A stretch of 64,000 nt of DNA from a virus: IMG/VR virus record IMGVR_UViG_3300037485_001872, positions 70,123-134,122 of that record; one strand, 5' to 3'. This document shows, in pieces, positions 2,333 to 26,300 of the stretch. Made by a program: the position numbers and the translations under genes. Position 1 is the first letter of the stretch. Each line of letters starts with the position of its first letter. The notes below the pieces were generated by a model. That model worked only from the letters and a program-made list of their open reading frames with translations. It had not been told where the DNA came from and did not search any database.

Positions 2333-2354
2333 TTCTCGATTCGCAAATCACAAA

Positions 2355-4175: not shown

Positions 4176-4200
4176 AGCCTCCTTCGGGGGGCTTTTTATT
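4176..4200 (+). terminator. intrinsic terminator
   Basis: AGCCTCC-TTCG-GGGGGCT hairpin followed by a T run. Confidence 0.85.
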
Positions 4201-4201
4201 T

Positions 4202-4268
4202 TTGTCATATTTATGTCAATTGAAAAATTAATGCTTGTTTATCTAACAAAATTTTGTATCTTTGTATC
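4202..4268 (+). promoter_or_regulatory. Bacteroidetes-type promoter with upstream 18-bp direct-repeat box
   Basis: TTG at 4235-4237, 19-nt spacer, TATCTTTG at 4257-4264; box TTGTCATATTTATGTCAA at 4202-4219; ATG at 4269. Confidence 0.75.
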
Positions 4269-4694: not shown

Positions 4695-4696
4695 TC

Positions 4697-5017: not shown

Positions 5018-5166
5018 AAAATAGACGTTTAGAAAGAGAAGCCGATGGTGTTAGTAACATTATAATTGACTTAATTTCAGAGATTAATTCTCTGGAGGAT
5101 GAGATTCAAAATTTAGAAGAGAAAGTTGAACGATTGGAAGATGAGTTGACTGACTTAAAAGCTTAA
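5014..5166 (+). CDS. 50-aa coiled-coil micro-protein
   Basis: ATGA-coupled to the previous gene; MKNRRLEREADGVSNIIIDLISEINSLEDEIQNLEEKVERLEDELTDLKA* shows a heptad pattern; ends just before the terminator. Confidence 0.7.
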   Translation: MKNRRLEREADGVSNIIIDLISEINSLEDEIQNLEEKVERLEDELTDLKA

Positions 5167-8800: not shown

Positions 8801-11800
8801 TGCGGCCTGGGAACCATCTGTAGATTCAATATCTCTCACTGCTGAGAAAAACTCATTTTTTATAGTTTTCTTTTTAGCCTCCTGTACTTTAACAACTTCG
8901 CTCGGTCTAAGTTCAGAGAAATTTTTAGAGAATAAACTTTGTGCCACCTTATTATTCATTTTAGTTTGCACAATTTCATCCAGCTTTCTAAGTTGATTTG
9001 CAATCTCTAAATCCACTCCTGTTTTTTCCTCACCTGTTTCCGCATTGAAGAAACTTTTACGAGCTTTTCTGTCAGATACAATTCTACTTAAATTATATTG
9101 GTCTTCCTCTTCAATTTTAGAATAATCCACTGAACCAGAAACACGATATTTTTCTAGTATTTCTGCTTTACGGGAAGCTAAATTAGCTAGGAACACTCTT
9201 AATTCATTTCCAACACCTGCTTCTGTATATAGATTTTCTTTATCTTGATAGTACTTAGCAACCATTGGTCTTTCAAGGTTTTCTTCATACCAATCATTTT
9301 TTGCTTTCAGAAATTTGTCTAATCCCTCATCGGTTAAGTCTGTTTCTACTGGGTATCGTTTTGCTTTTGCAATTTCTTCTTTTTTCTCATCGGTTAAATT
9401 AGCTTCATAAGCATCCTCAATCATTTTCTTTTCTGCATTGTCGAAGTCTTGGCTTCTAATAACAGAAATTAAATAATTGGACACTGAGGATTCTCTTAAA
9501 CTTTTGAAACGAGTTATGTTCCAATTGTTTTTCTCAGCATAAGCTATAAGAGGGTTGATAATTTTTAATGTAGCTAGGTTAGCTAACATATTATTATTGG
9601 CAACAATCTTACCTAATAAATTTAAGAAAATATTTGGAGCATGTTCTAGCTGTCCAAAAACCTTTTGTAGAACATTAACATCTCTTTGTACGGCATCAAA
9701 AGAAGCTTTAATATTCTCCTTAGTTACTACACCACTCTCTGTAGAAGAATCTGGAAGGTTAAGTCCCATTAATGTTCTATCTACTATTTGCTCAACATCC
9801 TTATTTTCTTGTAAGTATGCTTCCCCCTGGATTCTATGTATCTCAATAGTTTGTTGTTCTAGTTGAGCTACAAGTTTATCCTTATTTACATTTGGTTGAT
9901 TTGGGAAGGTTTTAAATAAAGCAATAAGTCTATCTAACTGTGGAAGGGCTACAGTTGTTAAATATCTGTATTGTGATTGGTCTCCAAAGTTAAAAGCGGC
10001 TCCTGGGGTTTTTTTGTAAATACGAAGCTTGTTACTTAAATTGGTAATCTGTGCTTCATTCATACTAGCTATAACTTGAACAGCATGAAATTCATCCACT
10101 TCATTTAAAGAATTATTTAGAGCCTCTAATTTAACCTCCTCTGTTAAAGTATCATCAGCAAAAGCTTTGTTAAGTGTGGCTGTATTGGTTCCTATTTTTG
10201 CTATCGCTGCATTTAACCTACGAATATCTGATTTTAACGTCTGTGCGCCACTATCTTTAAGCTTTTGTAGAATACGTTGGTTACTTTGGATGTGTTGCTT
10301 CGCAACTTCTAATTCACCTAATAAACGTCTACGTGTTACATCTAATGTATTCACTACAGTGTTATTTACACTATATAGCACTAATGAACTTTGCTTTAAT
10401 ACATTTCTATCTAGAAACTCAGAATCCTCATTTAAAGCTATCCTTGTAGCCATATCCATATACTCCTGAAGAGCTGTTCTATGTCCTACATTTAAATGAG
10501 CTTGTATTCTATTAATGAAGGAGTTGATAATAGCAATTAACTTTTGAAATAAGGAGGGGTTCCCTGCTGTGTTAGCAAATCCCTCTAGAATATTATTTAA
10601 AAGAATTTTTCCTAGGATTTCACGTCTAACGGCTTCCTCAAGTTCTTCTCCCTCATACAACTCAGAATACTTTTGATAGTACTCACCACTAAAAGTTTCC
10701 CATTCAGGTGTATTTTCAATTTCTTTTAATAAGTCACGGATTTCTTGTTGGTTTGGGTGCGCTTCTATTATTATATGCGCCACTTCTTCTGTTAAGTCTT
10801 GTAATGTAGCATTATCTGAAAGAGCTACAACACCATTAGCTAAATCTACTAAAGCATTTACCGATAGGTCAGTGCCTGTACGTACTTTATATTTGGCCGT
10901 ATATTCTGTAATACTCACTACAGAAATTCCCATTTTATTAAGTAGGCCAAGTAATTTAGATTTTAGTAAATCCTGCTCCTGTTTTGAAATAGGAACTCCT
11001 TTAAATGGTGTGGACTTTTGATATGACAGGTTAAATAAAACATCATGCACCCCGTCTAAATCTGCATCAATTTTCCCTTTTTCTAAATCAGAGATTGACA
11101 CTTGTTTAACCCCACCATCTTTGGTTGGTATTTCAATAACACTTTCATCTTTTTGATTAAGGGTGAATGTACCATCATTAGAGAGTGTCATTCCTTCTCT
11201 ACCTAAGTCGGCCAGAGCTTCATCAGAAAGGATGGCGGCACTAACAATTGAGTTTATAGCAAGTTCTCCCTTACCAGCTAATTTGAACTCTCCATTTGGC
11301 ATTTGCTTCTTGTTAGGAGCTATTAAACCTTGGCGTAAGTATTTATTTATAAATCCACTAATTGACTTAGGATTACTATTACTGTCAATAGCGGCCACCT
11401 TTAAAAAGCTGTCAGGATTTTCTAACTTGTATTGGTTATTCATCACCACTAAATCAGCAGTGGCTATATCGAATACATCTGGGTTAGTTGTAATCATTAT
11501 ATCGTCTGTAGATATAAATCCCATTTCAATGCTACCAATATTTGTGTTATTTAAAGCATCTGCAAAATTAGTGAACACTTTACCCTCTGGGGTACGATAG
11601 AATAGCTTAGGTTCTCCCCCTTTGTTTACTAGGGGATTTGCTTTTCCACTGATTTTAACCTTTGGATTTTTTATAACCACCTGGGTTTCTCTTTTTCCTG
11701 CGGCATCAAAAGTACTTAGGAATACAACATCTGCTTTGGCTGCATTTATCTCAGTTGTTTCATTTTGTCTAGCTACAGAGAATGGTACATTAGTTTCTAC

Positions 11801-14800
11801 CCTCACTGTCTCTACTTTTGGTGAATCTACTAGGTAGAAATCTACACCACTTCCTCTATCATACTCTTTGGCCATTTCATAAGTTGTGGCCGCAAAAATA
11901 CCCTCTACATCTGGGTGAGCATTAACTCCTGTCTTTCCATCTATTCCCTTAAAGTAAAGAGAAGGTGATTTCATTTTAGCCGCTGTAGATAGTATTAAGG
12001 CTTTTGCTGTAGGGTGTAATTTTTCTACAGGAACATTTTCTAGTTGTTTTTCAATATCTTCATTGGTAGATGGGGTTGTCCAATCTCCAAAGAATTTCTT
12101 AAATTTCTCTGAGAATACATTTTGGAAAATACCATTAGCATCTTCATTACTTTGGATGTGTGGGTTGGCAGCTATTTCTGAGAATAGTTCTGAAGCTACT
12201 TGAGGAGTTGGAGCTATTTTATTAGCATCAATCATATCCTCCACTGTTTTGTACATTTTCTTGAAATATTCAGCATGGAGTTGAGGATTAGAATGAAAAG
12301 ATTTTTCTAACATATTTTCATTTCTATCTGCCTCCACTGTAACATTCATCATATCATCAAGGGCTGTTCCTTCATATACGGCAAGATTATATATATTGGC
12401 GTGAGAAATAACATCAGCATTATCTTTTAAGAATTTAATTGTGTTCTCATACGTTGCTGCTGTTTCTTTTTCAAAACCAATGATTAAATTTGGAATAAAT
12501 TTCATTCCATTTTTTCTAATAATTTGAACGGCTTCTGCATTTAATCTTTCAGAGTTTGGTTTACTCATACCACGCATTACAGAGTCGTTATTAGACTCTA
12601 CACCAATTTCTACTAAAGCTATACCAGCTTTTTGCCAAAATCCTGGATTACTATCAATCTTTTTAACAGTGGCTGAGGTAGTTTGGATAATGAACCCTTT
12701 AAATCCTGGTTGTTGCTCCTTAACTCTTTGGTAAACATCTTCCAAATAAGTATAATTATCTGCCTGGCCAAATGTTTTATCATCTAAGTAGATGTATTTA
12801 GCATTTAATTTTGAAATATTTTCAACTTGCTCATCAATATTCTCCTTTGTTATTTTTTCAATCTTCTTAACAACAGTACAGAAAGCACAATTAAATAAAC
12901 ATCCTTCTGACATTTTTAGACGAGGAATAATTTCCATCCCTTTGAAAACATCATACTTATATCCATCTTTAAAATCATATCCAGCTTCTAACACCCCGTC
13001 TTCCATTGTATCAAAAGTAGAAGCATTTGTAGTGTTAAATTTACTTGAAAGATTAGGAATATAACCTCCTAACATGAAGTTTATTGATGGGTTGTCTTTT
13101 ACAAGTGTTTGAGCTGTAGATAAATTGGCATCTAATACAGAAAGCATTACCTTTTTATACCCTGCTTGTTGAATAAAGTTAAGGGTTTCCTCTGGGTCAC
13201 GCATTACATACATGTCCATATCTTTCCCTACACTATTATTAACAGCTGCTATCCAGAATGGAACCTCCATAAAGTCAACGCTTCTATCATACCCCTCCAC
13301 TTTAGAATACACCTTATCAAAATAATCATCAAAGATTTGTCCTTGTTCTGTAACATTTCCTTCACGTTGTCTATCCAATATGTATTGTGAGCTAACTTGA
13401 ATAGTTAATACCTTATCGGCATTATCTTTTGAAGGATTTTGGTTTACATAAATATTCTTTTGATTTAAACCATCATGTGCTGCTAATGCTTCTGTATATG
13501 TAGGAAACCCTTTAGTATCTTTAAATGTAGATGATGGTGTTAATGATGTATTTTTTTCAAAACTAGAAAGTCCTTCAATTTTAAAATTAGGACGGGTGGT
13601 TTCTTTCGAAAAATATGTGTTTGCTTCTTGTAATTTTTCTCTTACATTATCCCCACGGAACGTATTGAAATAAGCTATTTCTTGTTGCATTGCTTTTACA
13701 TCACCATTCACCACTGCTAATGCTAATTGACGAGCATGCTCTTGCGCAATTGACATTACAGGTTGTGCTTCATAAGCGGCTCTAAACAAGTCAAGGCGGT
13801 CTTGATTCATTGAAGATACTTGTGCATAACTATCTATTGGAGAAAGTCTATCTGAGGTAATTTTTCCTAAGAAATCTTCTATCTTATTTATCTTTTCAAA
13901 TATATAAGACGGGTCTAAAAATGTATTTTTGTATTTTGCAAGTTCTCTTAATACATCTCCTGCATTCTCTATTTTATATTTCCAAACATTTCCACCCTCT
14001 CCTTTAAAAGACACTTCTAAAAGTCTTTCTGCATTAGCATCTTGGTGGTCATATACATCAACTTCTTGTGGGGCTAAATATTGAAAGTATTCTCCTTTAA
14101 GTATAGCTCCTGTAGAACGAGAAATAAATTCTCCTAAAGGCATGTTCGCTAATTCTTCTGATGAAGCATCTTTAAGTCCAAATTGCTTGGCCACCCATTC
14201 ATAAATTGTAGAAAGCCAATCTTTTAGTTGTTGTAGGAAGCCTTTATCATTTGATAAATTGTCAAGTTCTTTTGCTCCATACTTTCCAATTAAGTTAGCT
14301 CTCACCTCATCCACAAGTCTTTCAAGATGTTGCTCAGGAGATTCCTCTGCTGCCCTAGCATAAACAGGGTTGTTTAAATCCATTCCTGTTGCTGTTGCTA
14401 AGTCACTAAGTTGGGTTTGTGAGTTTCTTACAACAAATTGTGTCATAATGTTATGTACATCAGTGTATTCCTTCTTTAATTCTGTATAAGAAATATTAGA
14501 TAGGTCTACCCCTGCAAATTTATGGTTTAAAATATCGGCCACTAATCTGGCTTCTACTTCCCCAAATAATAAAGAATAATTTAAGTATTTGGCATCTGTC
14601 TTATTTGTATTAAAGAAGTAATCTAATTCATATTGTGCAGCACTTAAAATATTACTTTCATTTACTGAAGGAGAGTTATTTTTTAGATAAATAGCAATAG
14701 CATCTCGTACTTCTCCTAATTTATTAGAAGAATTTCCTATTATTTTTTTGGCTTCGTTAAATATTGTATCACTATTTCCTCCTCTTGGAAAATTCTCTAT

Positions 14801-17800
14801 TTCCTGAATAGCATGACTTACTTCATGTATAAGAGTTAAAGCATAATATTTACTCCCATTAAGGTCGCCAGACTCGATATTGTTGATGATATTTCGAACC
14901 TCTCCTCCGTTGTTCCCAACTCCTGATTCTCCAATATTTTGCTCTCGGCTACTAATACGAATAAGTCCATTAGAGTAAGACCCGTTAGCTGTGTCAGCTT
15001 CTGATTTTTTGTAGAAATGTACATTTATATTTTTTAATTGTGGATATAATGTGAATAAACTAGTGTTTTCTAATACTTGGTCTAGGGTGTATTCTTTCCC
15101 TGGAGATGTATCTAGTCCTTTTTTAATATTAAACTCTTGTAATAGTTCATTAGAGAAATATTTCCATTGGCCTTCCTCTTTAAACCATCCTGTTTTATTT
15201 TCTATCTGTTGTGGGGAAGCTCCTTGAATTTCTAACTCCTTTGCCTGATTAAATAAAGAATTTAGCACGTTTAGGTTTTTTGCTCCTTGCTCTCCTACTA
15301 TTTGAAAAAGAGGAATATTGTGTTTACCTCCTAATACCTCTAATAGAATAAGTTGTTGTTCTCTCACAACATCCTCTGTTTTACTAAGTAATCTGTTTCT
15401 TCTAGCTTCGGGTGTAAAAATATTTCTATAAGTTACGTTACGAGCCTCTACTTCTCCTGCTAATTTTTGATATAAATTATATGGGGAAAACTCTGAAATT
15501 CTATCTCTAATAGGATTTAAATATTCATCTAAAGCATAAAGAACATCCATATAATCCTCTCTAGCTGCAATTTCCATCTTAATACGTAGTCTTTCAGGAA
15601 GATTATCCCACTCTTCTTCTATTTGTTTTGCTAACTCTTCGGATATTACTAAATCCTCTTTAATTAAAAAATCAGCCTTAAAGATTTTGTTTAGTTTTTT
15701 TTCTGTAATATCATCTAATAGTTCCACTATATAAGACATTTCCCTTAATACGTTCTCCTGTACTCTTAGATTTTCAATCTCATTTAGTTGTTCCTTGGTA
15801 AATATTTTATTTAAATTTTCTAATACTATTTCTGTGTTTCCACCTTTTGCAAAAAATTCTATAAATTGAATAGCATGTTGAAGCTCATGTATTAAATCTC
15901 CAAATATGAGTCTTTCTTCTTTAACATTTATTTCAATTGAGTTTGTTTCGGGGATATACCATGAATTATTTCTTACACGTGGGTCTATAGATATGGTGAC
16001 TTTCATATCTTTTAGTTGTGGGTATGCTTTAAATAGTTCTGAATTGTTTAACACTTGACTAAGTGTATACTCTCCATTAGTGCTTATTTTTAGGGTTCCA
16101 TCTGCAATTTCATACTTCCACTTTCCTTCTACCCCCTTTTCCCAACCTGTAGCTAAAAGGATTTCTTTAGGTGTCTTACCTAATTCTTCTAATTTTTGTG
16201 CCACACTTAGATTCTCTAACACGGCTGTAGCATTTTCTAGTCCTTTAGCCCCCTTTTCTCCTATAATTTGAAAAAGAGGAATACCTTGCTTTACCTCATT
16301 TTGTAGTTCTGGGGTGATGTCTATTTTATAAATAGATGGACTAATTGAATTTAATTCTTCCACTATCTTAGTAGCTTCATCTTTAGTATATTCTATGTCT
16401 TTTCCATTTTTATTATTCCATTCCCTAGCAATACCATTCCATATAGAAAAATTACCATTTGGTTTTTCCTCTATATATGATGCTGCAAGTAGTGCATTAT
16501 CGTCTTCAAACTTAGTAGTGGTTGGGGTTTGTTTAAAAACACTCTTAGCGACCTCCCCAACAGTGCCTAATGTTCCTTTAACAGGATTTCCGTAAAAGGC
16601 ATTCATCCCTTCTCTACGTGGCATAGAAACACCTGATTCCTCAGTTTGCATTCTATTCCATAACCTGTCAATTAATTTTTGTTTTTGTGCCTCGTTACGT
16701 TCTCTACTTAACACTTTATCAACAACTGCTGCAAGTTGTTCTTTAGTTTTAACTACAACATTATTAGCAGAAAGCATTAAATTATCAACATCTGTATTTT
16801 CAAATGCTGTTCCTCCCACTTGTTCTTTGATATTAATACTCCACCCCTCTAAAGGAGTGTATTTTGGTTTATCATTTATTGATGAATACTGGGCTCTCTC
16901 TTCAGGAGTTAATTTATCCTCCCATCCATTTCCATATTTGTTATAAAGGTCATTAACTAAAGTTTGTCTTTCTTCATTCCTTTCTTTGTTTCTTTCTGTA
17001 GCTTTTTGCCATTGGATTTTTTCACTTCCCCAACGTTCAAATTGTTGTTCACCATTTGTCCAAGAAATACTATCAACACCTTGTTTTACGGCTTCCTTTA
17101 AAGCAACTTTAAAGGCAAGTTTCACCCATTGTGGGGTACTTGTTATGAAAGGAGCTGTTGGTATTTTTGATTTAATGTTAAAATTATTATCAAATAAAGC
17201 ATTGTAATCCTCCTTATTTTGATTAAAATTTAATATGGCTTCGCTATTAACATTTAATTGTCTTTCATATGCAATTATTTCTGCCTTTATGAGTGTATCA
17301 GCAAATGCTTGTCTAGATGTATGATTAAAAAAGTGTGCATCATCTTTTCTATTATTAAAATCCAACATTTTTTCGTCATGTCTTTGTTGAATCATCTCTA
17401 ATCTAGTAGCAAGTGAGGTTTCAGAAAGTACTTTTATTCTATCTTCTGTTGCACTACTATTTAAATATTCAGATAGGTTTATTAATTTTGCATATTCCTT
17501 TTGACTATCTTCCCATCTAGTACGAATTTCTGATAGTTGTTCGGGGGATAATGCTGCTTTATCTGCTGTTATATTTTGAGCATTATATTTCTGACCCCAA
17601 TCGCTCTGAAGCTCTTCGAGAAATAACGTAGATGCACCATTTATATCTGTACGGGTATCCATACGTAAATGTACTAATACGTTGGGTTCATCCCAATGTG
17701 CTGAAGAGAAGTTTTTTGATTTTGAAATATCTGTTCCTATGTCCTCTAAATATTTATTATACTCTTCTTCAACTCTCTCTGGACTCCCAAATAATATACC

Positions 17801-20788
17801 ATTATTATTAGAGGCTACCATAAATTCATTTCGAGTCATTGGGGCTTGTTTTGGAAGCACCACTAATATTTCCCTATAATTCTGTCTGGCTCCTTTTTCA
17901 GTATGTGCTCCCCACTTTACTTCTTTTTGTTCCTTAAAATACTCTGTAATTTGGTCTTTTGCTTCTGTGAGTGTTTCTGGATACAATCGCATATCCAATT
18001 TCATTCCCCCTGGTTTATAAACATGGAAATCCTTATCCCCTCTTTTTTCAATTCTCCACCCTGCATTTTTAAATTCAACAATATTTCCTATAGGAGATGT
18101 TCGTTCACTTCTTACCCAAGCTTCAGTGTCTAATTCATTACCTGATATTTTAGCATCAAGTTCTTCCAGTTTTTTATAAATATCACCAAATTCTTGTTGG
18201 TATGTAGCCTCCATTTCTTCTCCTGCCTCTCTTAGGTCTTCTCCTAATTGTGCATATCCACTTTGAGAATAACTTCCAGTCCACTCATCCATTTCCCTTC
18301 GTATTCTTGTAACTTTTTCTTGTATTGCCTCTGCCGCTGGAGATACTCTATCCCTTATTTGTTGTTGCAGAGCTGCTTTTTGCTTATTGAATTCTTCTGC
18401 TTCTTTTAGTGTTAAACTACCCTTCACAACCTCAACCACCTGTACACGATTGTCCTTTAAGAATTGTTGTATTTCGGCTTTTGTAACACTTCTATTTTGT
18501 TCTTTCAACCAGGCGTTTAACCCAACCCATTCTGCTTCTGACCCTTTTCCAAATTTATCCAACCATTGTTTTGCTGGAATTTTTTCCACCTTACTTTCAG
18601 AAATTAGTTTTTCTAATGGTGAATAAAAACCATTAACTACTTCTGCCGCAATTGGGCGTACTTCTGTCGGTACTCCTCCAATATTCATGGTGATAGTACT
18701 ACCTACAGCTTCTGCATATTTTTCATCTAAAGCATTTTGCCATTGTTGGGCTATTGGTGTTAATAATTCATTCCCTCTTTCTAAAATAGCTTGTGCTTGT
18801 TTATTTCCATCTTTTGCTGCTTCTTTTAATAGGGCTTGGTGAAGATGCGCCACCTCATGAAGCGTAGTTTCATTAGATAGTTTTTCAGGATTTAAATAAA
18901 TCTTTCCGTCAAAATACATTCCATAAACAACCCCTACTGGAGTTTTTAATTCATATGTATCAAACTTTCTATCAAAGTTTAACTTAGTTACTACAGGAAT
19001 ACCCATAGCTTCTGCTTGTGCTTTTAGCTTATTAAAAACAGACGGCTCCATCTTAGTAGCATCTAGTTGTATACTTTTAATATACACCAAAGTATTCTCA
19101 ATTCCTGCGTCTCCTCCTATTTTAAGTTCCTGTTCTCCTATAAAGGTTCCTATTTCTTCACTACCTTTTTCAATTTTAGTATTTTCTTTTAACTTTTGTA
19201 AGTCTAAATCAATTCTAACTCCTCCATCTGCAAATGTTACAGGAGACCCATCAGGTAGATACCAACGAGTAGTGGTAAGTTCTGGATGGTCAAATTGGTC
19301 AGAGGTAGTTGTAGATACTCCTGGATACTCTCCTTCATCTCCTACGATGATATTACTGTCAAGTATTGAAGCTAAATTCTTAGTTGTAGTGTAATGGTAA
19401 GTAGTGGGTGCATTAATATCTCCCTCAAGACCATATGGATTATCTTGAACATTTAATAGCTTATGAAAAGCCATTTGCTCTGTTCTAAGTGGTTTTGCAA
19501 ACTCTCCTTTTCCAGGTTCCACTTGGTCATATGTAAGTTCTTTATTTTGCCATCTATCATAAAGCTTATTTTGTTCCCTTGTAAAATTCTCATCTACAAC
19601 ATTTCTTAAATCAATTAAATCTGATGGTGATAATTTTACTCCTTGTTTTAAAGCATCAATGTATTGTCTAAAATTTTCTAAAGTGATGCGTTCTCCTCCA
19701 AAAGTTGAGGGGGCATTAAATTTTAGTTGCTCTTTAATAGTGATGGCTTTATCATCAAATACAACGTAATTGCGTTCTTTAGAAATATTATCTGTAACTC
19801 CTGTTCCTAAACTATCAGGTGGGTATTGTATTCCATCAATTCCAGCTCTTAATAAAAATTCTGAGGCAGCTTTTGCTGAACCATCAAGACCTCTAAATTG
19901 TTTTTGTAGTTCTGAATATATTTCTGCGGCTGTATATTGAGGAGAAGCTAAACCTGATGTATTAATTCCTTCTTTTTTCCCTTGTTTTGCTATCTTTGCA
20001 GCTTGTGTTGGGGTTAGTTTTTGATACCAATCTAAGAAGTCATATTGGTCTGGTGTTTTTCCTTCATGTAACGCCACTTTATAAACCACCCCAGAATTTG
20101 TTAATTTTGTCTTTATAGTTTCATTTAACAATGTTTGGGCTTCATCAATGGCTTTCTGTTGATACTCAACATCATTTCCATATTCTAATTCCTTTTGAGA
20201 GTCCTTAATAAAATCACGGATGATATTTTTTATTTCTTCTTTAACAGATGCATTTTTATTAAATTCATTTTTTAAATCTATTTCTGCTATTGTAAGCTCA
20301 TCTACAAGTCTTCTTTGAGTTTCATTTTTGGCATTTTTATATCCAACTACAACACCTTTTTCATAGATTTTCCACTTTCCAATAGAAATATCCTGAATCT
20401 CAGTGTCGGCCATTTCCTTTGCATAATTGTCTGCAATATTTTTAAGAGAAGTGAAATAAATTCCATGCCCAAATACGCTTCCACCTTGACCTTCTCCAAC
20501 TTTTGACATATCAAAATTATCGAAAGTACGACCAGTACCATGAAATGCTTCCACCTGTGCTAGATAAGCTGAATGTTCCGCAATAATACGGTTCATCTCA
20601 TTCACATCTGTAGAAATGACTTCATTCGGGGTGAACTTTTTGAAAAGGTCTTTGAAGTAGTTTATAAGTACCTCTGGAGAAGTTGATTCCGCTGTTGGTG
20701 TAGCTTGAAAACTAGGAATTTGTGCACTTAAATAGTTGTACACTTTACTAATAACACCTTTCTTGTCTCTTTTTATTATGCAAGTCAT
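5864..20788 (-). CDS. giant (4974 aa) polyvalent putative virion cargo protein: three ART-like domains, zincin peptidases, two LPD23-like units, B12-binding-like radical SAM, helical C-terminal body
   Basis: AFHGT..F..F...G.G....G.GIYFT (ART); HEVAH, HELQH, HEVSH; IPLFQI.GE.GAK...TGW....G.WKY twice; CLFNCAFC; hydrophobic segment near the C-terminus; last gene of the cargo block. Confidence 0.85.
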   Translation of the reverse strand: MTCIIKRDKKGVISKVYNYLSAQIPSFQATPTAESTSPEVLINYFKDLFKKFTPNEVISTDVNEMNRIIAEHSAYLAQVEAFHGTGRTFDNFDMSKVGEGQGGSVFGHGIYFTSLKNIADNYAKEMADTEIQDISIGKWKIYEKGVVVGYKNAKNETQRRLVDELTIAEIDLKNEFNKNASVKEEIKNIIRDFIKDSQKELEYGNDVEYQQKAIDEAQTLLNETIKTKLTNSGVVYKVALHEGKTPDQYDFLDWYQKLTPTQAAKIAKQGKKEGINTSGLASPQYTAAEIYSELQKQFRGLDGSAKAASEFLLRAGIDGIQYPPDSLGTGVTDNISKERNYVVFDDKAITIKEQLKFNAPSTFGGERITLENFRQYIDALKQGVKLSPSDLIDLRNVVDENFTREQNKLYDRWQNKELTYDQVEPGKGEFAKPLRTEQMAFHKLLNVQDNPYGLEGDINAPTTYHYTTTKNLASILDSNIIVGDEGEYPGVSTTTSDQFDHPELTTTRWYLPDGSPVTFADGGVRIDLDLQKLKENTKIEKGSEEIGTFIGEQELKIGGDAGIENTLVYIKSIQLDATKMEPSVFNKLKAQAEAMGIPVVTKLNFDRKFDTYELKTPVGVVYGMYFDGKIYLNPEKLSNETTLHEVAHLHQALLKEAAKDGNKQAQAILERGNELLTPIAQQWQNALDEKYAEAVGSTITMNIGGVPTEVRPIAAEVVNGFYSPLEKLISESKVEKIPAKQWLDKFGKGSEAEWVGLNAWLKEQNRSVTKAEIQQFLKDNRVQVVEVVKGSLTLKEAEEFNKQKAALQQQIRDRVSPAAEAIQEKVTRIRREMDEWTGSYSQSGYAQLGEDLREAGEEMEATYQQEFGDIYKKLEELDAKISGNELDTEAWVRSERTSPIGNIVEFKNAGWRIEKRGDKDFHVYKPGGMKLDMRLYPETLTEAKDQITEYFKEQKEVKWGAHTEKGARQNYREILVVLPKQAPMTRNEFMVASNNNGILFGSPERVEEEYNKYLEDIGTDISKSKNFSSAHWDEPNVLVHLRMDTRTDINGASTLFLEELQSDWGQKYNAQNITADKAALSPEQLSEIRTRWEDSQKEYAKLINLSEYLNSSATEDRIKVLSETSLATRLEMIQQRHDEKMLDFNNRKDDAHFFNHTSRQAFADTLIKAEIIAYERQLNVNSEAILNFNQNKEDYNALFDNNFNIKSKIPTAPFITSTPQWVKLAFKVALKEAVKQGVDSISWTNGEQQFERWGSEKIQWQKATERNKERNEERQTLVNDLYNKYGNGWEDKLTPEERAQYSSINDKPKYTPLEGWSINIKEQVGGTAFENTDVDNLMLSANNVVVKTKEQLAAVVDKVLSRERNEAQKQKLIDRLWNRMQTEESGVSMPRREGMNAFYGNPVKGTLGTVGEVAKSVFKQTPTTTKFEDDNALLAASYIEEKPNGNFSIWNGIAREWNNKNGKDIEYTKDEATKIVEELNSISPSIYKIDITPELQNEVKQGIPLFQIIGEKGAKGLENATAVLENLSVAQKLEELGKTPKEILLATGWEKGVEGKWKYEIADGTLKISTNGEYTLSQVLNNSELFKAYPQLKDMKVTISIDPRVRNNSWYIPETNSIEINVKEERLIFGDLIHELQHAIQFIEFFAKGGNTEIVLENLNKIFTKEQLNEIENLRVQENVLREMSYIVELLDDITEKKLNKIFKADFLIKEDLVISEELAKQIEEEWDNLPERLRIKMEIAAREDYMDVLYALDEYLNPIRDRISEFSPYNLYQKLAGEVEARNVTYRNIFTPEARRNRLLSKTEDVVREQQLILLEVLGGKHNIPLFQIVGEQGAKNLNVLNSLFNQAKELEIQGASPQQIENKTGWFKEEGQWKYFSNELLQEFNIKKGLDTSPGKEYTLDQVLENTSLFTLYPQLKNINVHFYKKSEADTANGSYSNGLIRISSREQNIGESGVGNNGGEVRNIINNIESGDLNGSKYYALTLIHEVSHAIQEIENFPRGGNSDTIFNEAKKIIGNSSNKLGEVRDAIAIYLKNNSPSVNESNILSAAQYELDYFFNTNKTDAKYLNYSLLFGEVEARLVADILNHKFAGVDLSNISYTELKKEYTDVHNIMTQFVVRNSQTQLSDLATATGMDLNNPVYARAAEESPEQHLERLVDEVRANLIGKYGAKELDNLSNDKGFLQQLKDWLSTIYEWVAKQFGLKDASSEELANMPLGEFISRSTGAILKGEYFQYLAPQEVDVYDHQDANAERLLEVSFKGEGGNVWKYKIENAGDVLRELAKYKNTFLDPSYIFEKINKIEDFLGKITSDRLSPIDSYAQVSSMNQDRLDLFRAAYEAQPVMSIAQEHARQLALAVVNGDVKAMQQEIAYFNTFRGDNVREKLQEANTYFSKETTRPNFKIEGLSSFEKNTSLTPSSTFKDTKGFPTYTEALAAHDGLNQKNIYVNQNPSKDNADKVLTIQVSSQYILDRQREGNVTEQGQIFDDYFDKVYSKVEGYDRSVDFMEVPFWIAAVNNSVGKDMDMYVMRDPEETLNFIQQAGYKKVMLSVLDANLSTAQTLVKDNPSINFMLGGYIPNLSSKFNTTNASTFDTMEDGVLEAGYDFKDGYKYDVFKGMEIIPRLKMSEGCLFNCAFCTVVKKIEKITKENIDEQVENISKLNAKYIYLDDKTFGQADNYTYLEDVYQRVKEQQPGFKGFIIQTTSATVKKIDSNPGFWQKAGIALVEIGVESNNDSVMRGMSKPNSERLNAEAVQIIRKNGMKFIPNLIIGFEKETAATYENTIKFLKDNADVISHANIYNLAVYEGTALDDMMNVTVEADRNENMLEKSFHSNPQLHAEYFKKMYKTVEDMIDANKIAPTPQVASELFSEIAANPHIQSNEDANGIFQNVFSEKFKKFFGDWTTPSTNEDIEKQLENVPVEKLHPTAKALILSTAAKMKSPSLYFKGIDGKTGVNAHPDVEGIFAATTYEMAKEYDRGSGVDFYLVDSPKVETVRVETNVPFSVARQNETTEINAAKADVVFLSTFDAAGKRETQVVIKNPKVKISGKANPLVNKGGEPKLFYRTPEGKVFTNFADALNNTNIGSIEMGFISTDDIMITTNPDVFDIATADLVVMNNQYKLENPDSFLKVAAIDSNSNPKSISGFINKYLRQGLIAPNKKQMPNGEFKLAGKGELAINSIVSAAILSDEALADLGREGMTLSNDGTFTLNQKDESVIEIPTKDGGVKQVSISDLEKGKIDADLDGVHDVLFNLSYQKSTPFKGVPISKQEQDLLKSKLLGLLNKMGISVVSITEYTAKYKVRTGTDLSVNALVDLANGVVALSDNATLQDLTEEVAHIIIEAHPNQQEIRDLLKEIENTPEWETFSGEYYQKYSELYEGEELEEAVRREILGKILLNNILEGFANTAGNPSLFQKLIAIINSFINRIQAHLNVGHRTALQEYMDMATRIALNEDSEFLDRNVLKQSSLVLYSVNNTVVNTLDVTRRRLLGELEVAKQHIQSNQRILQKLKDSGAQTLKSDIRRLNAAIAKIGTNTATLNKAFADDTLTEEVKLEALNNSLNEVDEFHAVQVIASMNEAQITNLSNKLRIYKKTPGAAFNFGDQSQYRYLTTVALPQLDRLIALFKTFPNQPNVNKDKLVAQLEQQTIEIHRIQGEAYLQENKDVEQIVDRTLMGLNLPDSSTESGVVTKENIKASFDAVQRDVNVLQKVFGQLEHAPNIFLNLLGKIVANNNMLANLATLKIINPLIAYAEKNNWNITRFKSLRESSVSNYLISVIRSQDFDNAEKKMIEDAYEANLTDEKKEEIAKAKRYPVETDLTDEGLDKFLKAKNDWYEENLERPMVAKYYQDKENLYTEAGVGNELRVFLANLASRKAEILEKYRVSGSVDYSKIEEEDQYNLSRIVSDRKARKSFFNAETGEEKTGVDLEIANQLRKLDEIVQTKMNNKVAQSLFSKNFSELRPSEVVKVQEAKKKTIKNEFFSAVRDIESTDGSQAAFKFLMANGGLNFSDAYWNAITANTTKMVDRVDAIRLNDSRITPEHSRTMKASMDELEELLNSKKEILRQFTSANSPAEIEYDLMGELTKKNIIEKEDRIQELFLDVNTILSKYEEKIEDPFSYSENTTNEAYTKALADSGKPESEFLLLHMTEENKSRVRRFTSALKNVQRGGENLKAYEDYFDRKYGVNSSDDVRSLLTNRGMEELVADYSRERVTSYFKRFAPMGYDALLINLKDGTYSTTKLLDDLEAAKATAYAPTNILHNLAISTRFEWVEEGEDLRNPDYKTDSEFGFKQPKISKWRNDEYFRRFNPDANGQATTNLEEFTMLQKLKAVTKDAHIKYEEEGRNINKIPQVRRGKYERIQNASWDAIKNSVKDVIYNREDEKDYGEQVEGQDTDIRIIPKYYLRDLDDMEDVSNDFIYSYAVLQNAANTFEQRINSIADVSVIQNKLLNSKFDKGKAPASTNVAEAYREAMDAYFYGRRLSAKSSITLQNGKEVDVSRMAVHFNNLIKKAALGFSPTIAITSALVSNIQLAIYNRVGLYINTNSSRWAGGELSKLLPEYTTEIGKVNKQNKLYKLGETFGVHEIATKTKSAGYNRILRSLNDSPYAFMEMAATPHANIVMLSVLDDFRLVGDKFLTYEEFKLRADNANIDSKALLFKWNTLRKDSLYNLLENREGIMQLSEATENAIGKEYADALLSRVQSKIISTNNTIDSKTSADDKSAASRHFMMQFFTNFKDWFTLGVQKRFKRKHLNLRQGIEEEGHYITFKHFISDLTSLAYKDGLTKAISSIKSNYRSLSKTEQANLKLIALDVAAFTILTMLGMLVMAAADDDKNKHNWAIQYLSFIYFRTTSEVGSSQAPTGFLNVIDIIKSPIMAGNTMSQLFTVKDWTSDPVTSGTWEGYPKVARLLLRNTYYKHYMDLRNADAVREKTSFYRMLNSEVLISVQKPSKLEKEKLKKEALDNNINTIDKTGGI

Positions 20789-20795
20789 ATATTTT

Positions 20796-21122
20796 TTAAC
20801 ATGTTGAACATTCTTCCTGAGTGAAGCCTGTAATTACCACTGTATTTCCCTTAATTAGGGCATTTAAATCTAAATCAATAATATTGTGTCCATCAAGACG
20901 TTTAACTTCAAACACCTTACTACGGCCTGAATGACCCATCCATTTAGCTATATAATATTGTTCTGCGGATTTTTTTAGGATGATGAAAACATCCCCCACT
21001 CCCCAAAACTCATTAATTTCAATAATTGTTTTATTGTTTTTTTGAAGAGCTGAAGCAGTTATCTTCGCTCTTTTAGCTCCATTATAAGAAGGAGAACTAC
21101 TATCAGGCCAAATCCAATCCAT
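20796..21122 (-). CDS. hypothetical protein
   Basis: 108-aa ORF between its own promoter and the giant gene. Confidence 0.65.
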   Translation of the reverse strand: MDWIWPDSSSPSYNGAKRAKITASALQKNNKTIIEINEFWGVGDVFIILKKSAEQYYIAKWMGHSGRSKVFEVKRLDGHNIIDLDLNALIKGNTVVITGFTQEECSTC

Positions 21123-21128
21123 TATATT

Positions 21129-21150
21129 TTTTACAAATATACGAAAATTT
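21129..21150 (-). promoter_or_regulatory. Bacteroidetes-type -7 promoter element
   Basis: Minus strand reads TTTCGTATATTTGTAAAA (TATATTTG at 21134-21141); same string as at 32903-32920. Confidence 0.65.
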
Positions 21151-21181
21151 TATGAAAGTTCCTAGATAATAAAAGTAAATA

Positions 21182-23329
21182 TTATCCGCAGTGGTCTATT
21201 GTTTGTTCAATATTTTGACGCTCTGTTTCTGTGTAAAGTGGTGTACTTTTAAAAGAGGAAAATGCAGAGGATTTTAATGTGGCATCTTTGGCAGAATAGT
21301 CTTCATTAACAGATACATTTTTATCAATAACGTTATATGTAGAATCATTGATACCAACTAATGGGGTGTAATGTGCTATATTAGCTGTAGTTTCTATCTT
21401 CTCATAAACCCTACCATCAAGTCTTACAAAATCATCTTGTATATTCTCTATATTAATAATAGGGCTACCTATGGTTCCAGAAAATTTTCCTTTATATTCT
21501 CTCACTAGTTTTGGGTTATTTACATAGAATGAACGTAAAAATGGTGTTGTTGGACTCGCTGCTATTTCCTTTGGCTCAAAGATGTTTTCCAGATTTTTAT
21601 TTATTATACTATAATTTTTTAAATCATTTAAATCAGAAACGGTTTTTATTTCTGCTATTGTAATGGGGTCATTATTTTTTAATACAATCTCACCATTTTC
21701 AATTTCAAATGCTTTACTTAAAATATCATTCCCCACCATTCTTTGGTAGAAGTCTGAAATAAATTCTCCTGTTAAATATGTTACATCCCCAGTAAATTCT
21801 GAATAGTTATTAAATTCTTGCTTAACATCCACTTTATTTTGGGTGCTACTAAGTGGGTGGCCAAATAAAAGTTTATATATCACCATCTCAGGGGTGATGT
21901 TATTTAAAGAGGCTTTTTCATTTAAATACCTCTTAACATCTTCTCCTGCATTTTTTGCCTTATTTGGTCTAAATGTATTTGTACCGTCATAAGCTGTTGG
22001 GTAGTATGCTACATCTGGTAGGATTGATGGGTCTTCTTCCACCATCACCATTAATTCATTAAATAACTCTTCTTGAGGTATTCTATCAATGAGTTGATAC
22101 ACATCATCTTTCACCTGTAGAAGGGAAGATATTTCAAATGTTTCTATGGCCGACTCTGTAGTTTTATTTACCACTAAAGATAGGTCTGATGTTTCTATCA
22201 CCTTTGTCTTTTCTACAGGAGAAATAGAGAAGTACTCGTCATATATTTGACTAAAATTGTCAACATCTTCACTTGTAGGGGCTACACTTAAATTGGTTGT
22301 AAATTCAACTAGGGCATTTAAAAACTCTAAGGTTTGTGGTTGTGTTTTAGACTCCTGTACTTCTACTAAGTCAGAAAGGTTTATTCCCATTAGAAGAGAC
22401 TCTTTGGAAATGTCTTCTAATATGGTGGCCACTTCCTTTGGATATGCATCCCACACTTCTGGTGATATTCTTAATAAGGTGTTAAAGTGTTTAATAATCA
22501 TAGCATTACTCATGCCTGTCTTTAAAACACTCTCCAATAGATTACGGGTACTATCCACCACTTGTTTTTCATTTATTAAATAAGGAACCTTTTGTAGCTT
22601 TGAGTATTTCTCATATAATGATTTTGCATATGTAGCATCGGAATTATACTTATCTATTATAGATTGAAATGGGAGTGTTTGCACTACATCGCTGAATTGT
22701 TCTTCAGTTACACCTATTAAATAATTTTCTAGTTCCTTTTCTACTAAATAAGGATTTAAATGAGTTGTCTTACCAATGGGTGAAACTGAGTCTGTAGTGC
22801 TTAATACTTCTAATGAAGGTGAAAATTGGATATTAGGTGTCCTATCTAATTTTTTAATGACATTATAAATCTGTTCCCGTAAAGTTGGTGTAGTGATAAT
22901 AACATCAATTTCACTATTGGTGTAAAGTTTAGATGCTATTAAGCTTTGTTTAGTGGGTTTAAAAACACCATTTGAAATAAAAGCTGTTTTAAGTAGTGTG
23001 GAAAGCTGTGATAGGGATGTGATGGGAAGTCCTAAAACACTATTCTGTACCTCCACTATTTCTTTACTAGAAAGTCCTTGTTTTGCTGAGGAATTTTGTA
23101 CATAATCTAACACTGTTTGGGCGTAATATTCCCCATTAGCATCTTTTTGTACATTATTATGAATAGTGGTAAATTCTGGGGTGTAGGAAATAGCAAAGTA
23201 TTCGAGTGCTTTTTCTTCCTCACCCAATATGCTGAGTAAGTTTTTATATAATAAGGAATCTTCTCCATTTGGGGCATCTACGGATGTTATTTTTCCATCC
23301 ACTCGCATTATCTGACAACTTATTGACAT
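21182..23329 (-). CDS. putative virion cargo protein (715 aa)
   Basis: In the cargo block; N-terminal CQI.R.DG.I..V.APNG..S.LY...DANGE motif resembles segments of the giant protein. Confidence 0.65.
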   Translation of the reverse strand: MSISCQIMRVDGKITSVDAPNGEDSLLYKNLLSILGEEEKALEYFAISYTPEFTTIHNNVQKDANGEYYAQTVLDYVQNSSAKQGLSSKEIVEVQNSVLGLPITSLSQLSTLLKTAFISNGVFKPTKQSLIASKLYTNSEIDVIITTPTLREQIYNVIKKLDRTPNIQFSPSLEVLSTTDSVSPIGKTTHLNPYLVEKELENYLIGVTEEQFSDVVQTLPFQSIIDKYNSDATYAKSLYEKYSKLQKVPYLINEKQVVDSTRNLLESVLKTGMSNAMIIKHFNTLLRISPEVWDAYPKEVATILEDISKESLLMGINLSDLVEVQESKTQPQTLEFLNALVEFTTNLSVAPTSEDVDNFSQIYDEYFSISPVEKTKVIETSDLSLVVNKTTESAIETFEISSLLQVKDDVYQLIDRIPQEELFNELMVMVEEDPSILPDVAYYPTAYDGTNTFRPNKAKNAGEDVKRYLNEKASLNNITPEMVIYKLLFGHPLSSTQNKVDVKQEFNNYSEFTGDVTYLTGEFISDFYQRMVGNDILSKAFEIENGEIVLKNNDPITIAEIKTVSDLNDLKNYSIINKNLENIFEPKEIAASPTTPFLRSFYVNNPKLVREYKGKFSGTIGSPIINIENIQDDFVRLDGRVYEKIETTANIAHYTPLVGINDSTYNVIDKNVSVNEDYSAKDATLKSSAFSSFKSTPLYTETERQNIEQTIDHCG

Positions 23330-23333
23330 ATTG

Positions 23334-26300
23334 TTATTTCTTTTTACGTGTTTTACATTTTTTACTCAACTCTTCATTTGCGGCCTTAGTATTCTCTTGT
23401 GTTGGAGTTGACACTACATCGGGAGCTACATCTACAATTGATGGTTTCATTTTTCCAATGTAGTCCATTGAAAGTCCTCCAAAAATAGGAATTGTTTTGT
23501 CTATGTTCATGAATTTATCTAGAACGTCTTTAGAGTTCACAAATCCTCCTATGGTGTTTTCTCCTTCTGAGCTTCTAATTATTATAGTGGCATTTAGTTT
23601 TGCTGTTTTCTTGATTTGCTCGAAAATAGCTTCTTTTTGTTCCACTGTAACTCCCGCTTCTAAACTAACTATTATAGTGTCGTGAGATGAATAATCATAA
23701 TCTTCCCCTCTGGCTGTCACTAAATTAACTTTAGAACCCACTGCATCTAGAACTTTTTGTCCTAAAGCATTAGCTTCCTGTGAAATATCTACACCAGTTA
23801 CTTTATGTTGTTTTTTCTCAATTAGTATTGGAGAAAGTGGAATGGCTCCTGAACCTATAAATACAACATTACCTTTCATAAAACGGGTTTCTTTTTGTAA
23901 AGTTTCTACATAGTCAGCATAATATTCAAAATCTTCTAGTGTTTTAGTTCCCGCAATTATTTCATTTGCAAAAGCTACTTCTCTATCATAGTCTTCTTGG
24001 TTTAGGTTTTGTAATAATTGGGGTGTTTCTTTGAGGGATTGTTCTACTGCCTTAACTTTCTTAAAAGCCAATATCTTTTTGCGACCTAATTCAACGTGTG
24101 ATGCCATTCTATGTTGTCCATCATGGAAAAATCCGCTATAAATTACAGGTGGCAATTCTTCCCCTCTTTTTAATAGTTTCACCATATCATTGACTCTATC
24201 CATGTGTTCTAAATCACCATCGTAATCATCAACTAATTTATCTTTGTCGATTTTAGTATTGACAGAAACATAAGTTAATTCATATTGACCACTAAATTTA
24301 TTAGAGCTGTTATCAGCATAAGCCCCCATTCTGTCGTATATTTTAGTCAAATCTTCCGCAGAAACAACTTCACCTAATTTAATGCCACCCCATTCGCTTC
24401 TAATATCTTCCTTCACATCTCCTACACCAACACCAACACTACCTGCTTGGGGTGTTTCTTTGAGGGATTGTTCTAAAATTACATCAACTTGTTCACCTCC
24501 GACTACAAGTGTAGCTACTTTTTTACCATAAAAAGGAGATGACTTATCTGTTCCTTCACGAATTTCAGTAACTCTTACTGGAATATTTTCCTTTCCTTGT
24601 GATTCTTTTATTGCTTGTATTAACTCTAATGCACTTTCATTTTCTTCGGATTTTAAATCTATGCCTAAATTTTCTACTGCTTCTTCAAACGTGTTAAAAC
24701 CCTTATCATTTTGTTCTCTACTCTCTCCTTGTTTATTTGTAGTTTGTGTTTTAAATTTAGTTGTTTTTACACCATTTTTTTCTGTTGTAGTTACAACCAC
24801 CTTAACCATTTTACCCGAGCCATCATTTACAGTTTTATATGGTTTTTCCAATTTACTTCCCACATCTCCCCCTACACCAACACTACCTACTTCTTCTTCG
24901 GTTTTACCTTGTTCTTTGGGTAACAGTAAATCTTCTACAGTTTTTACTAATTCAGGATTAGTGTCGTCTAATTTTGCTTTGTGGTATGCTTCCGAAACAT
25001 CTCTTGCAGATTTATATTCATCTCCAAATTTATCTTGAAAATCATCAAACCAAGCAATATCTAAATTACCTAATGCAGTCCCTGTACTTTCAATATCTTT
25101 TAATGTATTATTAGATACCTCATTTGTAGTAGCATCTTCTCCCCCTACACCTACACTCCCTGCTTTTGGTAAAGCTGTTGCTTGACTTTTTGGGGCTTCA
25201 AGTAAAGGTGTAGCTTGACTTTTTAGTTGAGAAAGTATAGATAATTCGTTGCTGTACTTAGTAATTTCATCAAATGCTCTTTTGGGTTGTTCAAGTAATA
25301 ATGTAAGTGTATCTCCTAAGTTATTTGTACCTCTTAACCAACCTATATAAGTACCTTTATCTAAATTTTCAGTAAATTTGGGAATACCTACCACCTCTGC
25401 AAAATAATCTAATATAATTTGAGTTGCTGTAGTTCTTGTATTAACTTGGGAATCAGGTAGTGAATTTCTTCTTATATCTACATCGGATACTTTTACTTCT
25501 TGGGTAGGGACTACTGGTTGAGCTTCTTCATCCACTCCTTCAAATAGTTCCACCTCCTCATTCGGCTCCCCAAAATCTAGTACAACCTTTGGTGAATGAA
25601 AAACATCCCCACGTAAATCTAAATGTATACTTGCATTTTCAATTAAAGTTTGTTCCATATCTGTTTCTGGTAAAAGCCAGTCCGACAAAGATACGAATTT
25701 ATTTACATTAGACAATAAAGATTTTATTTTATCAATCTTTGCTTTATTAAGGTTTCCTGAAGTGATTTGTAGGGGCTGAACATCAATACCATTTCTCATT
25801 AATAAGAGATTTAGATTAGATGCTTTTTCAGCCTCTTCCACTTGTGTATTCATAATAGCATCCACTTCTCCTGAAACATCTATCACTGTAGGTATTAGAT
25901 TAACAGGGTAGGCTACATTCATTCCATTAAATGTAAACACAATAATGGCCACTCTTTTATTATCATATTTACCTTTCTTATTAGCTTGCACAGATTTTAT
26001 AAAAGAGGAAACATCTACTTTTGAATCATTTTTTAGATGTACTTTTCCATTCTCAATAAACCCTATATCTACAACATTTTTTACAGTGTCCTGAGTGAAG
26101 GGGTTATTTTGAATAGTTAACGTTCCGTCCTGATTAATTGTAGCATCTAATACAGGGTGTCCTATATACACATGTTGTACTGTGACTGTAGTGTTTAAGT
26201 CCACCATATCTCCATTACTTGCAAGGAAGGCTTCTGCGGCCTTTTTTCTTATCTCTGATACTCTTTTAAACACCTCACCATTTTTCGCTCCCTGAAGCTC

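Follow-up and report, generated by a model that had tools for sequence, protein, structure and literature searches.

The window analysed here is a stretch of 64,000 nucleotides (positions 70,123 to 134,122) of the IMG/VR virus record IMGVR_UViG_3300037485_001872, that is, the second half of a linear record of 134,122 bp with an estimated completeness of 88%. It comes from an uncultured phage of marine type and carries two giant late genes, the products of which, P0001 (4974 amino acids, aa) and P0002 (2354 aa), each join a virion-type scaffold to an intact enzyme module that uses S-adenosylmethionine (SAM). The module of P0001 belongs to the radical SAM enzymes and that of P0002 is related to nicotianamine synthase (NAS), and a preliminary description of this DNA had proposed that the two work as one system. 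The new element of the present work is a test of this pairing, which was mostly negative: the pair is not a conserved system. With moderate confidence, the modules are regarded as two independent cassettes mounted on virion scaffold proteins, which would be brought in by the particle, or at any rate built into it, each performing a few turnovers on a specific target.

The features that this reading needs are given below by their positions in the window, gp035 and gp038 being proteins of Cellulophaga phage phi4:1; the gene of P0001 is taken from the list of open reading frames (ORFs) and its translation.

5864-20788, minus strand: gene of P0001, 4974 aa, with about 3100 N-terminal aa of enzyme modules and a C-terminal gp035-like scaffold
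5867-11407, minus strand: gp035-like scaffold of P0001 (aa 3128-4974), recognised by BLASTP to gp035, with a hydrophobic segment near aa 4805
12194-13459, minus strand: radical SAM cassette, P0001 aa 2444-2865, about 420 aa, a Rossmann-like front domain and a radical SAM barrel
12878-12901, minus strand: CxxxCxxC motif, predicted [4Fe-4S] ligands C2630/C2634/C2637
23334-30398, minus strand: gene of P0002, 2354 aa, with about 1540 gp038-like N-terminal aa and then a C-terminal string of cassettes
23337-24017, minus strand: short NAS-like cassette at the C-terminus, P0002 aa 2128-2354, about 227 aa, a predicted SAM 3-amino-3-carboxypropyl transferase

Beyond about 5.2 kb, all but one of the ORFs of at least 150 aa in the window lie on the minus strand, and the late block is syntenic with phi4:1 from gp042 down to gp035. 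The ORF at 38259-44315 (2018 aa) shares 39% identity, along 92% of its length, with a virion structural protein that phi4:1 and phi17:2 possess, the two phages being members of the genus Lightbulbvirus, and in the phi4:1 record the proteins gp035 to gp042, the small gp036 excepted, are each annotated as structural from tandem mass spectrometry (MS/MS) proteomics. P0001 and P0002 are the orthologues of gp035 and gp038. Thus, P0001 from aa 3128 to about 4940 aligns to gp035 from gp035 residue 96 (BLASTP, E 3e-107) and its aa 3128-4937 match PHROG 37651, "virion structural protein" (E 5e-99), and P0002 aligns to gp038 with its aa 52-847 and 1080-1539 (BLASTP, E 1e-69 and 5e-19) and matches PHROG 32390 with its aa 32-868 (E 7e-93). 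The phi4:1 proteins have nothing that corresponds to the roughly 3100 N-terminal residues of P0001 and the last 800 or so residues of P0002, and they contain neither module, in agreement with the preliminary description, in which both domains were seen as apparent insertions within one late gene block. Presence in the particle is known from the MS/MS annotation for the phi4:1 homologues, and homology and synteny suggest it for the proteins of the window. Neither a megablast of the stretch 12000-24100 nor a tblastn search with either module gave any match in the 50,697 phage records that were covered. Both giants are almost devoid of cysteine, P0001 having four in 4974 aa (positions 3, 2630, 2634 and 2637) and P0002 one in 2354 aa.

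The radical SAM and NAS-like modules

The presence of a radical SAM domain in the 4974-aa protein, as described before, was confirmed by several lines of comparison. The Pfam family Radical_SAM (PF04055) matches P0001 aa 2626-2787 with 39.9 bits against a cut-off of 29.5, a hidden Markov model (HMM) of the family with 26 members spans aa 2444-2865 (E 1e-151), and the module keeps 26 of the 26 invariant family columns, CxxxCxxC included. The word-index search for this family returned 104 proteins at E<=0.001, about 100 of them at 29-49% identity with E-values from 1e-26 to 6e-89. The AlphaFold model of the module (mean predicted local distance difference test, pLDDT, 88.7) consists of a five-stranded Rossmann-like front domain followed by a radical SAM barrel, and Foldseek gave 254 PDB matches for it at E<=0.001, all those listed being radical SAM enzymes, with AprD4, CysS, TokK, RimO, MgmA, MiaB, OxsB and TsrM as the best, and with TokK, CysS, OxsB and TsrM among those matched over the full length. 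Three of the four cysteines of P0001 are those of the CxxxCxxC motif and are invariant across the family; that exactly the three cluster cysteines survive in a protein otherwise nearly free of cysteine argues that the cluster matters.

The designation "B12-type", which had been given to this domain, is retained at the level of predicted architecture, as the model and the fold matches suggest; a Pfam B12-binding match was found neither in the module nor in 100 of the 104 relatives listed. AprD4, the top fold match, is not known to bind cobalamin. The module has the modelled Rossmann-like front domain, the barrel and the CxxxCxxC motif in common with the class B radical SAM enzymes and their look-alikes (AprD4 6fd2, CysS 9n1d, TokK 7kdx, MgmA 9ccb, OxsB, TsrM); however, the class-B-like chains listed have only 8-16% identity to it, and the family of the window differs from them in being viral, about 400 aa long and endowed with its own motifs FWEIPxW, DKTFGQ and GFIIQTT. 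The best NCBIfam families, PhpK, BchE and MiaB/RimO, all remained far under their cut-offs. MiaB and RimO (4jc0, 7mjz) have a similar two-domain layout and are found among the fold matches, and some sources label the relatives of the module "MiaB"; these enzymes possess a second set of cysteines for an auxiliary cluster, whereas the module of the window is without it. A methylthiotransferase of the MiaB type was ruled out by the lack of these auxiliary-cluster cysteines, only C191, C195 and C198 of the fragment being invariant.

The NAS-like domain of the 2354-aa protein was likewise confirmed, the Pfam family NAS (PF03059) matching P0002 aa 2116-2281 with 40.7 bits against a cut-off of 27.1. 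The thermonicotianamine synthase MtNAS (3fpe) is matched with E 1e-7 by the single sequence and with 4e-16 by the family profile, the same profile of the short family (NAS-short) gives 3e-11 for CntL, and both enzymes stand well ahead of all methyltransferases; MtNAS chains occupy Foldseek ranks 1-4 for the structural model (pLDDT 85.8). Every invariant column of the NAS-short family is kept in P0002, and its invariant glutamate and tyrosine (E56 and Y79 of the family alignment) align with E81 and Y107 of MtNAS 3fpe. The titles of PDB entries name the mutants E81Q of MtNAS and E84Q of CntL, and Y107 is a catalytic residue of MtNAS. The module resembles MtNAS and CntL (staphylopine, 7c7m), which are the best matches by sequence and by fold, also in a FIGSGPxPL-type SAM loop. 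In contrast to the solved NAS and CntL chains of 264-298 aa, the family of the window measures about 190-227 aa and is without most of the N-terminal helical domain, the profile alignment starting from residue 78 of the 298-aa chain; the phage module is further distinguished by its frequent embedding in giant proteins and by a context without an opine dehydrogenase or metallophore genes. An exhaustive HMMER search with NAS-short among 1.84 billion representatives gave 262 proteins at E<=0.001, 50 of them at E<=1e-10; the closest matches make up a short family of about 190-215 aa, and proteins of the classical NAS/CntL size (about 250-290 aa) appear only at weaker E-values.

A generic methyltransferase was rejected for this module, since Methyltransf_25 reached 26.1 bits, under its cut-off, NAS and CntL are best by both sequence and fold, and the glutamate and tyrosine taken as catalytic are kept; the synthesis of a metallophore was rejected because such a gene context is absent. 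The module is regarded as a shortened relative that probably carries out a NAS-like transfer of the 3-amino-3-carboxypropyl group of SAM with release of methylthioadenosine (MTA), and it is not filed as a nicotianamine synthase. Two stand-alone NAS genes were seen in other surroundings. Behind the stand-alone NAS-short gene at L083:1585-2238 come genes for a GT8 glycosyltransferase, a de-N-acetylase of the PIG-L type and a PcfJ-like protein (2237-3190, 3076-3828 and 3963-5147), and a deacetylated amino sugar would be a plausible amine acceptor there. The neighbours of the stand-alone NAS gene of locus L088 are, by Pfam, a UvrD helicase, a TrmB regulator and a leucine-rich repeat protein, which give no functional clue.

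That the two modules are decayed relics, inactive remnants within fast-evolving giant genes, is highly improbable. The giant proteins are indeed mosaic and diverge quickly; against decay stand the retention of all invariant columns of both families, the three cluster cysteines in an otherwise nearly cysteine-free chain, and the confidence of both models.

Mobile cassettes and the test of their pairing

The radical SAM and NAS modules are mobile cassettes that occur also as solo genes and that reside in otherwise unrelated, nearly cysteine-free giants. This was observed by comparison with a file of giant proteins, in which the long ORFs from the radical SAM loci and from the NAS loci L081 and L082 were combined with 19 long proteins of the NAS search. 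Only P0001 aa ~2400-2900 (52 subjects by BLAST) and P0002 aa ~2100-2354 (21 subjects) are widely shared with this file; other stretches of either protein find at most three subjects, except seven in the 100 aa directly before the radical SAM module, the sharing falls sharply on either side of this cassette, and the scaffold past about aa 3000 of P0001 was matched by none of the subjects. The closest radical SAM relative, P0257 (58% identity), has only the module in common with P0001, and the same is true of the closest NAS relative, P0108 (54% identity), and P0002. Among 78 IMG/VR loci of the radical SAM family, 51 place it in ORFs of at least 1000 aa, three in ORFs of 528-713 aa, and 24 have it stand-alone. 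On the NAS side, 19 long proteins (687-3842 aa), in all of which Pfam PF03059 was matched, were found among the 49 non-self matches at E<=1e-10, the rest being mostly of about 190-300 aa. Many of the 19 are free of cysteine, and many related giants have none across 1400-3800 aa. Single-module scans of IMG/VR returned no relatives of either module, and IMG/VR scans with P0257 and P0108 found nothing.

The domains that keep company with the modules are those of polyvalent proteins. Fifteen of the 51 radical SAM giants, chosen as non-redundant and within a size limit, were scanned with Pfam and contained ART-PolyVal (7), DUF7178 (5), GNAT (3) and LPD38 (2), besides InPase, RadC and LPD23; LPD38, LPD22, ART-PolyVal, SLT, NUDIX, GNAT, GGDEF and ParB_N each occur at least once in the 19 long NAS-search proteins. 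In the window, P0001 itself has LPD23 at 68 bits (Pfam) and three HExxH motifs at aa 644, 1634 and 1988 (span aa 644-1992, window 14819-18859), the latter two within the near-repeat contexts LIHELQHAIQ and LIHEVSHAIQ close to the LPD23 matches; these HExxH modules may be self-processing metallopeptidases. Two further features belong here.

20384-20545, minus strand: ART-PolyVal-like stretch, P0001 aa 82-135, tentative (Pfam 29.3 bits against a cut-off of 31.2)
24047-24446, minus strand: ParB/Srx-like domain, P0002 aa ~1985-2117, with DGQHR at aa 2093, bracketed by a 29-bp repeat

The latter has no Pfam match, and it is taken to be ParB-like from its DGQHR motif. As judged by these domain matches, with LPD23, the ART-PolyVal-like stretch and Radical_SAM in one chain beside three HExxH motifs, P0001 and P0002 have the polyvalent build described by Aravind and co-workers. 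The polyvalent proteins of Iyer, Burroughs, Anand, de Souza and Aravind (2017, PMC5512222) are giant multi-domain proteins that link unrelated enzymes and lie beside virion genes, as here, and they share with the present proteins the LPD and ART-PolyVal domains, metallopeptidase motifs, a ParB-like domain and modules that also occur solo, differing in the scaffold, which here is the Lightbulbvirus gp035/gp038 pair. The words radical, nicotianamine and S-adenosyl occur nowhere in the main text of PMC5512222, the supplementary and File Transfer Protocol (FTP) domain catalogue lying outside this scope, and PMC13434306 brings up radical SAM in passing only, for a HExxH motif. Polyvalent virion proteins are thus known, and radical SAM chemistry or aminocarboxypropyl transfer in such proteins was not found described in the searchable literature, supplements aside. 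Such proteins are thought to be the first weapons of the phage that enter the cell, and two chemistries, that of an iron-sulfur radical SAM enzyme and that of a SAM-dependent aminocarboxypropyl transfer, now appear as recurrent cassettes there; the proportion of radical SAM loci in ORFs of at least 1000 aa raises the question of what use and what target an oxygen-sensitive cluster enzyme has in a particle.

The two modules, about 10.5 kb apart in the window, were seen together hardly anywhere else. NAS-short was found within ±10 kb of none of the 78 radical SAM loci, and none of the 78 whole IMG/VR records gave a solid NAS match, including the 23 records with a completeness of at least 90%; the sole match was an 18-bit partial one of 54 residues in a 373-kb record. 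The same search recovered its positive controls, that is, the record of the window and an independent NAS-bearing record outside the query alignment (E 6e-55). No NAS was present among the 104 proteins of the word-index search, and in precomputed Pfam annotations one of the 40 long (808-2305 aa) radical SAM family proteins had it, namely P0143, which is also the only one of the 149 listed NAS-search proteins (19 of them above 600 aa) matched by the radical SAM HMM. Conversely, no radical SAM module was found within ±10 kb of the NAS loci L081, L082, L083 and L088, nor in the whole records of L081 and L082. These four loci with DNA context (two IMG/VR, one metagenome and one GTDB locus) came from pattern scans with a smaller alignment, the larger alignment being too diverse, and the NAS side of the test consists mainly of protein sequences without genomic context; a word-index search for longer NAS proteins found none, which is weak evidence.

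P0143 (1332 aa, on a contig of 8620 bp) unites the radical SAM module (1-387), NAS (615-789) and DUF7178 (1022-1279) in one chain. Its modules have 38% (radical SAM) and 33% (NAS) identity to those of the window and the rest of the chain has no match in P0001 or P0002, which implies that the pair arose at least twice; the best relatives of the window modules carry one module only. The pair has formed at least twice and is not conserved, and a weak association between the modules may exist. The proposal of the preliminary description that the two modules form one system is accordingly not supported by the loci, records and proteins compared, and its caution that the pairing could be coincidental agrees with the mostly negative counts. 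In the co-occurrence test that it had put forward, the modules were not conserved together; its own refuting statement, that they never co-occur elsewhere, does not hold either, because P0143 has both.

Each module is paired with DUF7178 far oftener than with the other module. DUF7178 was detected by HMM within 31 of the 78 radical SAM loci and in the same ORF at 19 of the 51 giant-ORF loci. Where the radical SAM gene stands alone, no other neighbour is conserved (DUF7178 in 9 of 24 such loci by clustering and in 11 by HMM). Seven of the 40 long proteins of the radical SAM family and 9-10 of the 19 long NAS-search proteins contain it as well. The record of the window contains a stand-alone copy at G000:C1:35004-35645 (= L086:1486-2124; E 3.8e-31) among small plus-strand genes, none being found inside the 64-kb window itself, and further copies lie, among others, at L054:1463-2110 and L062:11700-12338. 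A ten-member DUF7178 profile matches N-glycosylase/DNA lyases of the Ogg2 type (3fhf, E 2.4e-4; 3knt), with its invariant lysine and aspartate aligned to those of the helix-hairpin-helix/GPD (HhH-GPD) motif, presumably the catalytic residues. By these profile matches DUF7178 looks like an Ogg-like (Ogg2-type HhH-GPD) fold of a DNA glycosylase/lyase; no relevant published work on DUF7178 was found. DUF7178 is the partner seen most often with either cassette. For the radical SAM one this makes a target linked to DNA probable and suggests, as a lead rather than a result, that DNA is where at least this module acts.

These observations bear on the possibility that the radical SAM module and the NAS-like one, perhaps with DUF7178, act sequentially on one substrate, for instance a base in the host DNA or in the DNA that enters, which might be flipped out, modified by radical chemistry and then aminocarboxypropylated. 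In favour of such a coupled pathway are the single chain of P0143 with all three domains, the DUF7178 counts on both sides, and the present genome, which has all three, DUF7178 as a stand-alone gene and the two SAM-using modules in neighbouring late genes. It is nevertheless unlikely, because solid NAS matches were absent from each of the 78 radical SAM records, including the most complete ones, radical SAM is missing from 18 of the 19 long NAS-search proteins and NAS from 39 of the 40 long radical SAM ones, and the modules of the window are not the nearest relatives of those in P0143 (38% and 33% identity, against 58% and 54% to their best relatives). The analogy to wybutosine synthesis, which had been drawn for such a two-step pathway, found no support either, TYW1 and TYW2 not being among the Foldseek matches listed (ranks up to 50), with no direct comparison made. 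A more specific form, in which the three domains would constitute a kit for editing DNA bases on the entering phage DNA or on the host DNA within seconds of infection and before any transcription, is quite unlikely; there the glycosylase fold would flip the base, and the radical SAM enzyme would alkylate it and/or the NAS-like enzyme would add the 3-amino-3-carboxypropyl group. If true, it would be a DNA hypermodification of an undescribed kind with immediate protection against restriction. Since the pairing is not a conserved system, the cassettes are best treated singly, with the DUF7178 link first.

The other proposal made for the pair was that the injected modules deplete the SAM of the host before phage expression and thereby disarm type I restriction and the BREX (bacteriophage exclusion) defence. 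SAM is used by both modules, MTA is released by NAS-type enzymes and by the SAM lyase of phage T3 alike, and the short NAS module, which is without most of the N-terminal domain, might be able to cleave SAM with no large acceptor present. By general reasoning, the copy number of virion cargo proteins is low, the turnover of radical SAM enzymes and of NAS and CntL is slow, and a cell holds of the order of 10^5 SAM molecules, a pool that a few slow copies could hardly empty in time; the drain is kinetically unlikely. The invariant glutamate and tyrosine of NAS-short, which would activate an acceptor, point to a real amine acceptor, a radical SAM domain would be a costly destroyer of SAM, and the near-absence of joint occurrences speaks against a conserved dual-drain payload, so that this reading is held to be very unlikely as a whole. 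The T3 enzyme, a phage enzyme that consumes SAM as those considered here, is small, abundant and expressed early, and it is not known as virion cargo. Its use as a precedent in the preliminary description was correct in that the T3 SAMase is reported to counter type I restriction and BREX (10.1101/2023.02.27.530186).

Proposed delivery and site of action

In the favoured explanation, that of two independent cassettes, the gp035-like and gp038-like scaffold parts would place P0001 and P0002 in the particle, and the radical SAM and NAS-like cassettes would be separately acquired and independently acting additions, forming neither one pathway nor a SAM sink. Both proteins would enter the host along with the DNA, the three HExxH modules may cleave the chain, and each cassette would then modify a specific macromolecular target in a few turnovers, the NAS-like one transferring the 3-amino-3-carboxypropyl group of SAM to an amine with release of MTA and the radical SAM one carrying out a class-B-like radical chemistry, possibly methylation. 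Alt of phage T4 is a head-packaged enzyme that is injected. The chemistry of Alt and of the DarB and DdrB proteins of phage P1 is that of a methylase/helicase, of ParB or of an ADP-ribosyltransferase, and differs from the present one by having neither radical SAM nor aminocarboxypropyl transfer. The P1 proteins are head-packaged and act at DNA entry (PMC5512222), as is proposed here for P0001 and P0002.

Several points weigh against this explanation. P0143 fuses both modules about 230 aa apart, and DUF7178, common to both modules and present with them in this genome, leaves room for a common theme. When ten genes next to four other giant ORFs with radical SAM were compared with PHROG, one weak match of unknown function and no structural annotation resulted, and consequently the term "virion protein" holds for the phi4:1-like scaffold only and not for the whole class. 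Finally, the survival of an oxygen-labile [4Fe-4S] enzyme in the particle and through the tail channel is awkward, which favours action in the producer cell.

According to this last alternative, the cassettes work in the cytoplasm of the virion-producing cell, where their substrates would be the phage DNA or components of the particle under assembly; the scaffold fusion would serve only to position the cassettes, and HExxH clipping might occur before or after packaging. Radical SAM chemistry depends on SAM, a donor of electrons and a cluster that is intact and reduced, which the cytoplasm offers and the particle does not, and the three HExxH motifs of P0001 are in keeping with clipping in the producer cell, as is the processed P1 DdrB reported in heads (PMC5512222). 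On the other side, the near absence of cysteine from both giants and from many of their relatives fits proteins built for life in a particle, and the polyvalent-protein model is one of injection together with the DNA (PMC5512222). Action in the producer cell is, on balance, rather unlikely.

The arrangement of the cassettes in P0002 is marked by repeats. A perfect 29-bp direct repeat, in frame and encoding EQSLKETPQ, is present at 24018-24046 and 24447-24475, and the NAS module starts exactly past the copy at 24018-24046, the second along the gene; a repeat of 27 nt, which encodes a GSVGVG linker, occurs in three copies (24422-24448, 24866-24892 and 25139-25165). Both look like recombination handles for the swapping of cassettes.

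Between the two giant genes lies one further gene of the late block.

21182-23329, minus strand: gene of P0003, 715 aa, a gp037-like virion protein (BLASTP to gp037, E 2.7e-18)

P0003 has no match in Pfam or in PHROG. A similar short N-terminal motif (M-S/T-C/…-I/V-…-R-…-K-…-I-T/S-K/S-V) was noticed in P0001 (20732-20788), P0003 (23270-23329) and gp035 (L087:6598-12342), and residues 4-50 of gp035 weakly resemble P0001 2844-2892 (E 0.005); the shared motif may be a particle-targeting leader that an effector insertion of about 2800 aa has split from the rest of the gp035-like part.

At the other end of the P0001 gene, a 216-aa ORF on the minus strand (5214-5864), the start of which overlaps the P0001 stop, matches homing endonuclease PHROGs (phrog_314, E 2e-24, plus the GIY-YIG family) and is, by these matches, a mobile endonuclease. 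In phi4:1 a stand-alone PARP-like gene, gp031 (L087:3908-5059; annotated "polymerase" from PF00644), lies a few genes downstream of gp035, whereas the gp035 orthologue of the window itself contains a fused ART-like stretch.

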